From the IMG/VR virus record IMGVR_UViG_2740892422_000008: a stretch of DNA of 7,995 nt; one strand, 5' to 3'. The DNA is from a virus (lineage: Duplodnaviria > Heunggongvirae > Uroviricota > Caudoviricetes). Made by a program: the position numbers and the translations under genes. The notes under the pieces were generated by a model. The model saw only the letters and a list, made by a program, of their open reading frames with translations. It ran no database searches and was not told the origin of the DNA. This document shows, in pieces, positions 1,238 to 7,900 of this stretch. The number at the start of each line of letters is the position of its first letter. Position 1 is the first letter of the stretch.

Positions 1238-1453
1238 TCATGAGTCTTTGATAAACTGATTTATCTTTGGATAGTTGTACCAGATAATCCCTCGCTTACT
1301 GTCTGGTTTCCCTAAAGGAGATACTCGTTTGAAGTGGAAGCCTTCCACCCAACAGTTCTGGCGGTATGCTTCAATTTGTCTGGCCCCCAGACCAGTGCGA
1401 AGCATCAGGCCGTATTCAACCATCCACTCTTCATTAAAGATTACTTGTGCCAT
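1238..1453 (-). CDS. xisR: Excisionase-like protein (Rac XisR/YdaQ-like), 71 aa
   Basis: ORF immediately upstream of and co-oriented with int. I chose the ATG at 1451-1453 ([15 protein letters not shown]...) because it is preceded by GAGGTG at about 6 nt spacing; the track start at 1477 is a TTG extension. Sequence matches my recollection of K-12 YdaQ. Confidence 0.8.
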
Positions 1454-1504
1454 CGCATCACCTCTGGCAGGCGCCAATGTTAGACTGAAATTGACGCCCG
1501 ATGT

Positions 1505-1520
1505 TGATTATTAATAATCA
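1505..1520. promoter_or_regulatory. Perfect 16-bp AT-rich palindrome TGATTATTAATAATCA in the ydaC-xis spacer (candidate dimeric regulator binding site)
   Basis: Exact dyad symmetry read directly from the sequence, centred 52-67 bp upstream of the xis start codon. Confidence 0.3.
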
Positions 1521-1552
1521 GCTATGAAGTTTTAATTTGAATACAATGCAAT

Positions 1553-1753
1553 TCACGACGACTGAAGTTTCTCGCAATTAAAATTTATCAGTTTTACTTT
1601 CTGCTCTCTGGAAATGCCTGCTTCTTTTTTACCTGAGAGCATTTTTTCGCATTCTGATTTGGTTAATTTTGTTTTTGAGTACCTTGTCCAGTTAGTAGGA
1701 GTGCCACCTTCCTTTTCAATAGTGGCGGTAATTTTATACATGAACACCTCCAT
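1553..1753 (-). CDS. ydaC: YdaC-like small prophage protein of unknown function
   Basis: Minus-strand ORF (…MEVFMYKITATIEKEGGTPTNWTRYSKTKLTKSECEK…) resembling Rac YdaC from memory. Start is ambiguous: ATG at 1753 (66 aa), ATG at 1741 (62 aa, preceded by GGAGG at 5 nt spacing), or ATG at 1813 (86 aa, overlaps ralR by 80 nt). The 3' end of ralR overlaps the 5' region. Confidence 0.65.
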   Translation of the reverse strand: MEVFMYKITATIEKEGGTPTNWTRYSKTKLTKSECEKMLSGKKEAGISREQKVKLINFNCEKLQSS

Positions 1754-6578: not shown

Positions 6579-6749
6579 TTAAAGTTCGTGTGCCATCTGG
6601 TCTTTTTCGGCACATATTTCACTACAATATTTTTTCATTTCCGTCGTTGGGATAACTCCACGCATGAAATGAAGTGGTCTTTTAATGCTTTTGCTTTCTT
6701 TAACTTCTTTATCGCAAAGGTGGTAAGCACATTTTATTTTCTTAGTCAT
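6579..6749 (-). CDS. ydaE: YdaE-like small Cys4 zinc-binding protein, 56 aa (absent from the ORF track, below its size cut-off)
   Basis: Manual translation of the minus strand gives [56 protein letters not shown], stop TAA at 6579-6581. Cys pairs C7/C12 and C42/C46. Its ATG (6747-6749) overlaps the kilR stop as ATGA, indicating translational coupling. Position between kilR and racC matches the Rac gene order. Confidence 0.8.
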   Translation of the reverse strand: MTKKIKCAYHLCDKEVKESKSIKRPLHFMRGVIPTTEMKKYCSEICAEKDQMAHEL

Positions 6750-6970
6750 CACCATGACTCCGCCTTTACAGGTAAACCATCACGACCGAGGAAGACTTTA
6801 ATCATGCAGTCAGTAATGCATGTTTTTGTGGTCAGGTTACGAATATAAAGCTTTCGCTTTTTAATATTGTTTGCCGAGGCAATATATGTCCGGCCTTCAT
6901 GAAGAACATAATCGCCAGGAGTCACACACTGACGTGGTATTTCATCAGTTCCGAAGTGATGTGCAATCAT
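6749..6970 (-). CDS. kilR: KilR, Rac prophage cell-division (FtsZ) inhibitor, 73 aa
   Basis: [73 protein letters not shown] matches K-12 KilR from memory. ATG at 6968-6970 is preceded by GGAG at ~7 nt; the track start at 6982 adds 4 aa without a good RBS. Confidence 0.9.
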
Positions 6971-7141
6971 AATTATCTCCATTTTTACAAATGAACTTTG
7001 TTGATGCGGTGCCTGGTGCCTCCAGGTGACTGCAACCAGTTAACAATTACAGTCGGCTTTCCCACCCAAACCAATAAGGACTAACATGACTTTTAACTGT
7101 GCCACGTGCGCTTAGCCGCATTCACCGCATCACAAAACTCA

Positions 7142-7193
7142 CTTTAAAAAGGGCGGACATCAGCCGAACTTCAAGAAAAAAACTGATGCCGCC
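7142..7193 (-). terminator. Candidate intrinsic terminator on the minus strand, upstream of kilR
   Basis: Inverted repeat GGCGG(a)CATCAG (7152-7163) / CTGATGCCGCC (7183-7193): 11 bp with one bulged base and a 19-nt loop. On the minus-strand transcript it is followed directly by CUUUUUAAAGU (plus 7141-7151). No U-tract follows it on the plus strand. Confidence 0.35.
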
Positions 7194-7411
7194 AGGACTA
7201 CACACAGCAATGTCGTTATTTACAACCGGAGGCGCACTCCCACCATTTAAATTTAACAGACAAGACCGACTCTTTATGGATATCGGAAATGCGCCTTCGT
7301 GTTGTGCCCGGTTTTATTTCACCACCTCCGGGCTTCGGTGGTCTCGGCTATACCCCTACAGCGAGAGCTTGTGTTAACATTTCAATACCCTTACAGTTGA
7401 GAGTTATTGAT

Positions 7412-7900
7412 ATGTTGGATATATTTACTCCATTGTTGAAACTTTTTGCTAACGAGCCACTCGAAAGACTTATGTATACGATTATCATTTTTGGTCTCAC
7501 TCTCTGGCTGATACCGAAAGAGTTTACTGTCGCATTCAATGCTTATACTGAAATACCTTGGCTCTTTCAGATTATCGTTTTTGCCTTTTCTTTCGTGGTC
7601 GCCATTTCCTTCTCAAGATTGCGAGCACATATTCAAAAGCATTATTCATTACTACCAGAGCAACGAGTATTGCTTCGTTTATCTGAGAAAGAAATCGCTG
7701 TATTTAAAGATTTCCTTAAAACAGGAAATCTTATTATCACTTCTCCTTGCCGTAACCCGGTTATGAAAAAATTAGAACGGAAGGGCATCATTCAACATCA
7801 GAGTGATAGCGCAAACTGTTCTTATTATCTCGTCACCGAAAAATACTCCCATTTTATGAAGTTATTCTGGAACAGCAGGAGTAGACGTTTTAATCGTTAG
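7412..7900 (+). CDS. sieB: SieB superinfection exclusion protein, 162 aa, two predicted N-terminal transmembrane helices
   Basis: ATG at 7412 (MLDIFTPLLKLFANEPLERLMYTIIIFGLTLWLIPKEF…), stop TAG at 7898-7900. Matches Rac SieB from memory. Hydrophobic segments at about aa 21-36 and 48-67. The track start at 7289 is a non-ATG upstream extension. Confidence 0.88.
   Translation: MLDIFTPLLKLFANEPLERLMYTIIIFGLTLWLIPKEFTVAFNAYTEIPWLFQIIVFAFSFVVAISFSRLRAHIQKHYSLLPEQRVLLRLSEKEIAVFKDFLKTGNLIITSPCRNPVMKKLERKGIIQHQSDSANCSYYLVTEKYSHFMKLFWNSRSRRFNR

Follow-up and report, generated by a model that had tools for sequence, protein, structure and literature searches.

The 441-bp spacer between the divergently oriented genes kilR and sieB (positions 6971 to 7411) was analysed in a 7,995-nt stretch of the virus record IMGVR_UViG_2740892422_000008, which represents the left arm of a Rac-type prophage and is referred to as the window in the following. 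On its minus strand the spacer probably constitutes the 5' regulatory region of kilR, which would comprise two successive RNA modules, the small RNA (sRNA) KilS and a structured leader RNA; we assign this reading a probability of about 75%. The initial annotation of the sequence had described a gene-free region that could also encode a small RNA. According to the list of open reading frames (ORFs), the spacer indeed exceeds in length every other part of the window that is free of long ORFs, but the term gene-free is wrong, as the non-coding RNA (ncRNA) gene kilS (b4833) of the RefSeq annotation of MG1655 maps to positions 7146 to 7243 on the minus strand. The suspected small RNA is thus real, already published and annotated, and oriented in the sense of kilR.

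The RefSeq coordinates of kilS in MG1655 (1418405 to 1418502, minus strand) were transferred to the window with an offset fixed by the kilR start. All 98 nucleotides of the MG1655 ncRNA were identical in the window, and KilS is located 176 nt upstream of the kilR start codon on the same strand, as in MG1655. The complete spacer of MG1655 is of equal length and differs at two positions (7012 and 7138), both of which are outside kilS. The spacer was detected at a coverage of at least 80% in 1760 of 5426 complete E. coli genomes, and its G+C content of 45.8% equals that of the whole window. KilS is a 98-nt Hfq-dependent sRNA composed of a 5' domain and an intrinsic terminator, with a predicted folding energy of -34.9 kcal/mol (z = -3.28). 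According to the available part of the report naming it (Bar et al. 2021, PMC8175672), KilS was predicted by RIL-seq and confirmed by northern blot, being seen in the wild type and gone when hfq is deleted; it builds up in stationary phase, an independent promoter is indicated by published sets of transcription start sites, and yncL is recorded as its RIL-seq partner. KilS is a known and annotated sRNA, verified by northern blot and equipped with a transcription start of its own. The same part of the report classes it as derived from the 5' untranslated region (UTR) of kilR and contains no description of the structured leader downstream; DicF is not mentioned in the report.

The terminator hairpin of KilS, GGCGGCAUCAG...CUGAUGUCCGCC, is located at positions 7152 to 7193 of the minus strand and is immediately followed by the U-tract UUUUU (7146 to 7150), with position 7146 being the annotated 3' end of the sRNA. 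This hairpin is the GC-rich, terminator-like stem-loop noticed in the initial annotation. It is a terminator, but one that acts on the minus strand, since an A-run precedes the hairpin on the plus strand; the combination of a GC-rich hairpin and an immediate U-tract was found on the minus strand only. The structure was missed by a consensus scan for terminators because its loop exceeds 8 nt. The probable seed of KilS, CAUUGCUGUGUGUAGU, is located at positions 7197 to 7212 on the minus strand and has been conserved where KilS-type modules occur in the Stx1c phage, in GER2 and at other loci. This seed can pair with the 5' UTR of yncL at positions -40 to -16 (-18.9 kcal/mol, p = 0.018 compared with shuffled sequences). 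The KilS promoter can be placed by inference at positions 7244 to 7280 of the minus strand, where the sequence CTTGTCTGTTAAATTTAAATGG resembles an extended -10 type promoter with a weak -35 region and is conserved in Rac-like prophages. Two further pairings were considered and rejected. An action of KilS on ftsZ in the manner of DicF was not reflected in complementarity to the ftsZ initiation region beyond chance, as the best KilS-ftsZ duplex was no better than shuffled controls (p = 0.67) in a test of low power that also missed the DicF-ftsZ pairing, and nothing beyond chance was obtained for a pairing of KilS with the translation initiation region of kilR.

A permissive Rfam search of the window, with gathering thresholds of 48 bits for DicF and 47 bits for STnc100, related both modules to described RNA families. 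The match to DicF (RF00039) covers positions 7206 to 7151 on the minus strand and reached 39.1 bits (threshold 48, E = 6.8e-6), and KilS-type copies in general scored between 35 and 43 bits, compared with 76.7 bits for true DicF. The kilR-proximal 175 bp of the spacer (6990 to 7165) are approximately 80% identical to a site in about 2000 further E. coli genomes, and the sites examined among these are the ydfC-dicB spacers of Qin-type prophages, directly abutting dicB. The gene order is ydaG-ydaF-(sieB)-KilS-leader-kilR in the window and ydfA-ydfB-ydfC-DicF-leader-dicB in the Qin-type loci, so that KilS occupies the same slot of the early-left operon as DicF, behind genes of the DUF1391 (ydfA/ydaF) type and about 170 nt ahead of a gene for a small cell-division inhibitor. 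Both RNAs have a terminator stem of the type GGCGG...CCGCC with a UUUUUAAAGUGA tail in common, the KilS terminator (stem GGCGGCAUCAG/CUGAUGUCCGCC followed by UUUUU, forming the 3' half of the molecule as in DicF) aligns base for base with the flanks of the DicF terminator in the Qin-type loci, and the leader that follows is again approximately 80% identical. In contrast, the single-stranded 5' part of KilS is wholly different, and the downstream gene is kilR in Rac and dicB in Qin. The alignment revealed that the DicF seed UUUCUGGUGACGUU is missing from the Rac sequence, and with it the 5' seed UUUCUGGUGACGUUU, through which DicF base-pairs to the translation initiation region of ftsZ. Since both the Rfam score and the ftsZ seed speak against a membership, KilS is not assigned to the DicF family. 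KilS nevertheless resembles DicF in its mode of action, being an Hfq-dependent sRNA built on the same terminator scaffold, and its sequence identifies it as the probable Rac counterpart of DicF, a diverged relative. The homology of the two RNAs may possibly have been described before in the older dicF literature. Judged by the alignments, the downstream gene has been exchanged between Rac and Qin, apparently with retention of the RNA modules.

The combinations of seed and downstream gene were counted among the loci sharing the downstream leader. The DicF seed was combined with dicB in 68 loci and with kilR in 4 loci, and the KilS-type seed was combined with kilR in 23 loci and with dicB in a single locus; several loci contain other seed variants along with various genes. 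The Rac-type 5' sequence GCUGUGUGUAGUC is encountered again in the Stx1c phage, in GER2, which has another gene downstream of it, and at other loci. By appearance, KilS and DicF represent one sRNA scaffold with different seeds and, if they do share one, would provide a natural case of sRNA retargeting through seed replacement. The lack of the DicF seed and the DicF score under the threshold would also be expected if KilS were a decayed DicF pseudogene without regulatory function, of which only a terminator has survived, and the few RIL-seq interactions of KilS (three are listed in the available part of PMC8175672) point in the same direction. We regard this explanation as quite improbable, since the 5' sequence is kept in several unrelated contexts, including GER2 and an E. 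coli locus with different flanks, since the accumulation of KilS requires Hfq according to the same source, and since the seed is complementary to the RIL-seq partner yncL. The latter E. coli locus, from strain SCPM-O-B-8794 (approximately positions 1453 to 1563, minus strand), harbors an STnc100-like element followed by a KilS-type module (GCTGTGTGTAGTCTTGGCGG...); therefore, the reverse order of the two modules also occurs.

The second module, the leader RNA, comprises about 130 nt and extends from position 7131 to position 7003 of the minus strand. Five helices joined by linkers of 0 to 3 nt form a five-helix junction with an additional pseudoknot, as deduced from the Rfam match, the predicted fold and covariation. 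The closing helix P1, deduced from covariation and RNAalifold, pairs positions 7123 to 7131 (GAUGCGGUG) with positions 7003 to 7011 (CACCGCAUC), and the hairpin P2 is located at positions 7104 to 7119. A variable insert is closed by a short helix of the type GG(A/C)...(U/G)CC (7101 to 7103 with 7055 to 7057), which was detected by RNAalifold. The hairpin P3 (7028 to 7054) pairs positions 7047 to 7054 with 7028 to 7035 and consists of the arms GACUGUAA and UUGCAGUC around the loop UUGUUAACUGG, and the pseudoknot connects the sequence CAGUUAA at positions 7093 to 7099 with UUAACUG at positions 7037 to 7043 within this loop. The hairpin P4 (7012 to 7026) is formed by the arms CCUGG and CCAGG (7022 to 7026 with 7012 to 7016) around the loop AGGCA, and it includes the sequence GGAGG that resembles a Shine-Dalgarno (SD) motif. 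The leader ends 32 nt ahead of the kilR start codon, and the intervening translation initiation region (6971 to 7002, minus strand) contains the SD motif GGAG at positions 6977 to 6980 in front of the ATG at position 6970. The single Rac leader folds with -52.1 kcal/mol (z = -3.02), whereby P1, P3 and P4 form unaided. A tRNA-like reading of the five-helix junction was considered and rejected, as ARAGORN detected nothing in the window and no Rfam tRNA match overlaps the leader.

Between the KilS terminator and kilR, the sequence hardly varies among phages of very different kinds, with the exception of the variable central insert. The initial annotation had proposed a covariance analysis across Rac-like prophages. 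Compensatory changes lend strong support to the structure of the leader RNA. A set of 38 distinct leader copies was used, and the tested structure comprised P1, P2, P3, P4 and the pseudoknot. Standard base pairs were present in 99.1% of the cells, compared with 26 to 42% when the 3' partners were slid by one to three columns. Changes on both sides of a pair were observed at seven pairs (24 cells), a result reached by 0 to 1 of 500 shuffles, and P3 alone contains compensatory double changes in four pairs. The P4 hairpin carries a compensatory change from UA to GC in P7 and in a Klebsiella phage. RNAalifold independently yielded the same helices along with the GG(A/C)...(U/G)CC helix, for which seven double changes were counted. 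Both strands of the pseudoknot are invariant within this subfamily, and support for their pairing comes from the wider family.

A wider family was collected by scanning one genome per species for the core pattern GGTGAAT...CACCNGGAGGCACYNGGC, which resulted in at least 120 loci from many genera of the Enterobacterales; a genome often contains several of them, in some cases arranged in tandem. Among the matches listed, 116 distinct sequences were available for comparison. The complementarity of the segment behind P2 to the P3-loop region, which corresponds to the pseudoknot, was much higher within a sequence than in cross-pairings between sequences (Mann-Whitney test, p = 5e-27), with helices of at least 7 bp in 37% compared with 8% and 74 distinct helices in total. 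A perfect 7-bp stem of P3 was present in 55% of the sequences compared with 4.7% of the cross controls, with 45 different stems, and the outer positions of P1 covary family-wide. The covariation within the subfamily along with that in the wider family makes the fold of the leader, including the pseudoknot, well supported. These comparative data show the leader to be a conserved RNA that is predicted to fold immediately ahead of toxic small genes.

In MG1655, a change from G to A at position 7012 of the minus strand affects the otherwise invariant closing base of the leader helix P4 and converts the pair C7026-G7012 into a C-A mismatch; the K-12-like clinical assembly BHUCD01 lacks this change. 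The leader of one IMG/VR contig (L067) is chimeric, as the 5' arm of its P3 is of the Rac type and the 3' arm of the Qin type, resulting in mismatches in the stem, which looks like a recombination event inside the invariant P3 loop.

The chimera, the near identity of the arms in nucleotide sequence across unrelated phages around a variable center and the mixed combinations of the flanking modules would all be expected from a boundary sequence at the DNA level, in other words a joint for the homologous recombination of sRNA and toxin modules in lambdoid and P1-like phages that is not a functional RNA. The compensatory double substitutions that keep P1, P2b, P3 and P4 paired, along with the stems and pseudoknots that differ in sequence but remain complementary among the 116 Enterobacterales copies, argue against a purely DNA-based role, and RNAs of the STnc100 family accumulate in cells. 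An exclusive function as a recombination joint is therefore decidedly improbable, although roles as DNA joint and as RNA are not mutually exclusive.

The Rfam match of the leader to STnc100 (RF02076) covers positions 7135 to 6997 on the minus strand and model positions 26 to 154 of 206, with a score of 34.5 bits (threshold 47, E = 1e-4); the leaders of all dicB, kilR and terB genes scored between 30.8 and 43 bits and are thus under the threshold. Copies are transcribed in enterohaemorrhagic E. coli (EHEC), the Hfq-bound sRNA EcOnc27 overlaps with one of them located downstream of stx2, and the sRNA PasD of enteropathogenic E. coli has been described as STnc100-related. The leader shares with these RNAs the GGUGAAU junction, the CACCNGGAGGCACCNGGCACC sequence in the 3' part and the same order of P1 to P4, including a multi-helix junction closed by GGUG/CACC and a terminal CCNGG-AGGCA-CCNGG hairpin. 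Likewise, all of them are carried by prophages in numerous copies and are confined to the Enterobacterales. On the other hand, P2 of the kilR leader is built differently, the 3' extension of the model is missing, the pseudoknot is not drawn in the displayed Rfam structure line, and the element is followed by an ORF instead of a terminator; no terminator is located between the element and the SD motif and start codon of kilR, so that it does not represent a discrete, independently terminated RNA. The leader is accordingly best regarded as a diverged member of the STnc100 family below the Rfam threshold, which was previously unannotated and belongs to a functionally uncharacterised family. Tandem copies of STnc100-like elements, 200 to 550 bp apart, as well as many copies per replicon were observed in several Enterobacterales, namely in the Pantoea plasmid pAPP145_2 (L163/L176) and at the loci L190, L195 and L211.

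The genetic context of the leader was compared between loci. It was found upstream of dicB-type genes in more than 70 loci, upstream of kilR-type genes in about 30 loci, upstream of terB/tciA in P7 and D6, and upstream of a number of small, unrelated ORFs, the products of which in part look like membrane-associated proteins. In the loci examined, it ends 20 to 45 nt before the downstream start codon. By this distribution, the leader is a portable cassette that immediately precedes small ORFs such as dicB, kilR and terB/tciA. In the P1-like phages P7 (L004, 2304 to 2616) and D6 (L005, 2304 to 2621), the leader is located 38 nt upstream of terB/tciA within the C1-controlled tRNA-ban operon, and a tRNA-Sec-like structure (46.6 bits, threshold 47) is present about 110 nt upstream of it.

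In the wider family, again among the matches listed, a T-run was present within 80 nt downstream in 46 of 120 loci and an ORF preceded by an SD motif within 90 nt in 25 of 120. The terminators downstream of many family members, the discrete and expressed canonical STnc100 copies, one of which overlaps the Hfq-bound EcOnc27, and the relationship of PasD to the family raise the alternative that the element is processed from the kilR 5' UTR to yield a second, trans-acting and Hfq-binding sRNA of the EcOnc27, PasD or canonical STnc100 kind. We consider this unlikely, since no terminator follows the element in any dicB, kilR or terB context, in which an SD motif and a start codon are located 20 to 45 nt past P1, since the Rfam match is limited to model positions 26 to 154 without the 3' extension, and since the RIL-seq study that found KilS reported no such RNA at the locus, as far as its available part extends (PMC8175672).

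The arrangement of KilS and the leader suggests how the expression of kilR might be controlled. A weak promoter near positions 7244 to 7280 would drive the synthesis of KilS (7243 to 7146), which ends at the intrinsic terminator. Because the 5' seed differs, the targets of KilS are expected to differ from those of DicF, in line with yncL rather than ftsZ as the published partner. The terminator would shield kilR against the KilS promoter as well as against early-left transcription, which in this prophage would also have to cross about 490 nt of untranslated antisense sieB sequence. Transcripts that read through the terminator would carry the leader (7131 to 7003), which may act in cis on the toxic kilR gene via the processing or stability of the mRNA or via the control of translation or elongation. 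Both the attenuator role of the terminator and the cis-regulation by the leader are inferred from this arrangement. It resembles sRNAs generated from 5' UTRs by premature termination and the attenuator-type leaders of toxic prophage genes in that an intrinsic terminator in front of the coding sequence defines the end of a short RNA and in that the toxic gene would be expressed only on read-through. Transcription termination is also the known level of kilR silencing: Rho/NusG-dependent termination keeps the gene silent, and a decrease of NusG caused by OxyS relieves this. In contrast to attenuators, no alternative anti-terminator structure was found in the kilR spacer, and the known silencing depends on Rho and NusG and not on an intrinsic terminator.

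Several points weigh against the interpretation of the spacer as a two-module regulatory region of kilR. An intrinsic terminator alone does not explain the published Rho/NusG dependence of kilR silencing. Both modules score below the respective Rfam cut-offs, KilS below that of DicF and the leader below that of STnc100 (34.5 versus 47 bits). The promoter hexamers proposed for KilS are weak and were not detected by a consensus scan, and the p value of 0.018 for the yncL pairing is modest, with the same crude test failing to recover the known pairing between DicF and ftsZ. Moreover, the fold need not be a cis-acting leader, because many members of the family are followed by a terminator and not by an ORF.

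The STnc100-like elements combine the same core with one of two continuations, a terminator or the SD motif and start codon of a small toxic protein, and this pattern would be expected of one sensor domain with alternative expression platforms. It leads to the more far-reaching proposal that the element is a cis-regulatory RNA sensing a factor or ligand, or otherwise a dedicated processing signal, and not merely a further sRNA, within a portable cassette of sRNA, leader and division inhibitor. A DicF/KilS sRNA with variable seed, the leader and the division inhibitor would then recombine freely among lambdoid and P1-like phages. This extension is doubtful and offered tentatively; the pseudoknotted five-helix junction with its invariant loops would be consistent with it.

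The two-module interpretation of the kilR upstream region is of relevance for the physiology of E. coli K-12, since KilR is the toxic product that makes the inhibition of Rho or NusG lethal and that mediates the growth arrest induced by OxyS. The dicF-dicB-like architecture upstream of kilR provides concrete elements to mutate, and a gating of kilR downstream of transcription initiation is now testable. The leader family comprising STnc100, EcOnc27 and PasD is very widespread, expressed and prophage-borne, and a machine-learning study reported sequence variants in the vicinity of stx2 and kilR to be predictive of the clinical outcome. As both modules score below the Rfam thresholds, they are missed by annotation pipelines outside MG1655.

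The sequence motifs of the spacer emphasized in the initial annotation can be assigned to the leader in most cases. The CCGCAT repeats (7116 and 7125), the CACGTG palindrome (7103) and the GTTAAC sites (7039 and 7373) are present, each hexamer being at chance level with about 0.1 occurrence expected per given hexamer in 441 bp. They do not represent DNA motifs of the protein-binding type; these three types of motif matter only because they are located inside a conserved structured RNA. Both CCGCAT copies are the complements of AUGCGG in the helices P1 and P2, the GTTAAC at position 7039 is the invariant P3 loop, and the CACGTG, also in P2, arises from a single Rac-specific C-to-U change that converts a G-C pair into a G-U pair; the second GTTAAC is located outside the leader. 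The second hairpin highlighted there, ACCACC/GGTGGT at positions 7321 to 7342, exists as a stem with a preceding T-run but does not appear to be a meaningful structure. It is not the minimum-energy fold of its surroundings, its stability is at the level of shuffled sequences (z = -0.66 on the minus and -0.08 on the plus strand), and the region prefers a competing GCCCGG/CCGGGC stem. A role as terminator or attenuator was rejected on these grounds and because no U-tract follows the hairpin on either strand. An equivalent stem of 5 to 6 bp is kept in a diverged locus (L135), and a minor role of the hairpin is possible.

These assignments also bear on the view that the spacer is a plain divergent-promoter region devoid of genes, in which the sieB promoter is accompanied by a terminator-like hairpin, either bidirectional or on the plus strand, and by dispersed DNA motifs. 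The divergent orientation of kilR and sieB, the promoter-like hexamers near sieB and the lack of a RefSeq annotation of the spacer in most genomes other than MG1655 are compatible with it. It is nonetheless highly improbable, as kilS is annotated in MG1655 and was verified experimentally by northern blot and RIL-seq, the hairpin is followed by a T-run on the minus strand only, the motifs are located in covarying helices and loops, and the second hairpin is not significant.

The ORF at positions 7099 to 7377 of the plus strand (92 aa, GTG start) is present and lacks a ribosome-binding site, as stated in the initial annotation. Its 92 open codons are the argument for a real gene, the probability of which is practically nil: the deduced product belongs to no Pfam family, no RefSeq annotation covers the ORF, it runs antisense to KilS and the leader, and its frame would be shifted in close relatives by a 1-nt deletion in the KilS terminator loop. 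A further ORF on the minus strand (7348 to 7539) was rejected as a coding region, as it yielded no Pfam family.

On the sieB side, a Rac-like prophage of an O121 strain lacks sieB (locus L134, 1501 to 1935), and kilR and the spacer are followed there by ydaF, which is joined directly at approximately position 7358. The sieB gene therefore represents a separately inserted cassette (moron) with its left end at approximately position 7359, which supplies only 53 bp of the spacer (7359 to 7411, plus strand) and is oriented antisense within the early-left operon. The candidate sieB promoter of the initial annotation, TTGTGT (7369)-17 bp-TACAGT (7392), spans positions 7369 to 7397 and matches the consensus at 7 of 12 positions, which is below the threshold of the promoter scan. 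The best match of the scan, TTGAGA-17 bp-TATATT at positions 7397 to 7425, agrees at 10 of 12 positions and overlaps the annotated sieB start codon. A promoter within 7359 to 7411 is plausible because the candidate lies inside the sieB-specific insertion, and this segment presumably contains the sieB promoter. The sieB coding sequence extends from 7412 to 7900 on the plus strand according to the RefSeq annotation (Pfam SieB, PF14163, E = 1.5e-31). The Pfam domain begins at residue 21, which corresponds to an in-frame methionine codon at position 7472; this and the overlap of the best promoter match with the annotated start codon raise the question of the true start of sieB or of a shorter, internally initiated product.

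The kilR coding sequence on the other side of the spacer encodes an FtsZ inhibitor and extends from 6749 to 6970 on the minus strand in the RefSeq annotation. A second in-frame start codon is located upstream at position 6982 (MEIIMIAHH...) and overlaps the SD motif of the annotated 73-aa start at position 6970; the ORF list accordingly gave a 77-aa form starting at 6982. The genes on the minus strand of the window are, in this order, int, an xis-like gene, ralR, recT, recE, racC, ydaE and kilR, followed by sieB on the plus strand. The full-length RalA antitoxin sRNA was detected antisense to ralR at positions 1557 to 1735 of the plus strand (Rfam RF02694, 212.7 bits), and RalA and ralR constitute a known type I toxin-antitoxin pair of Rac.

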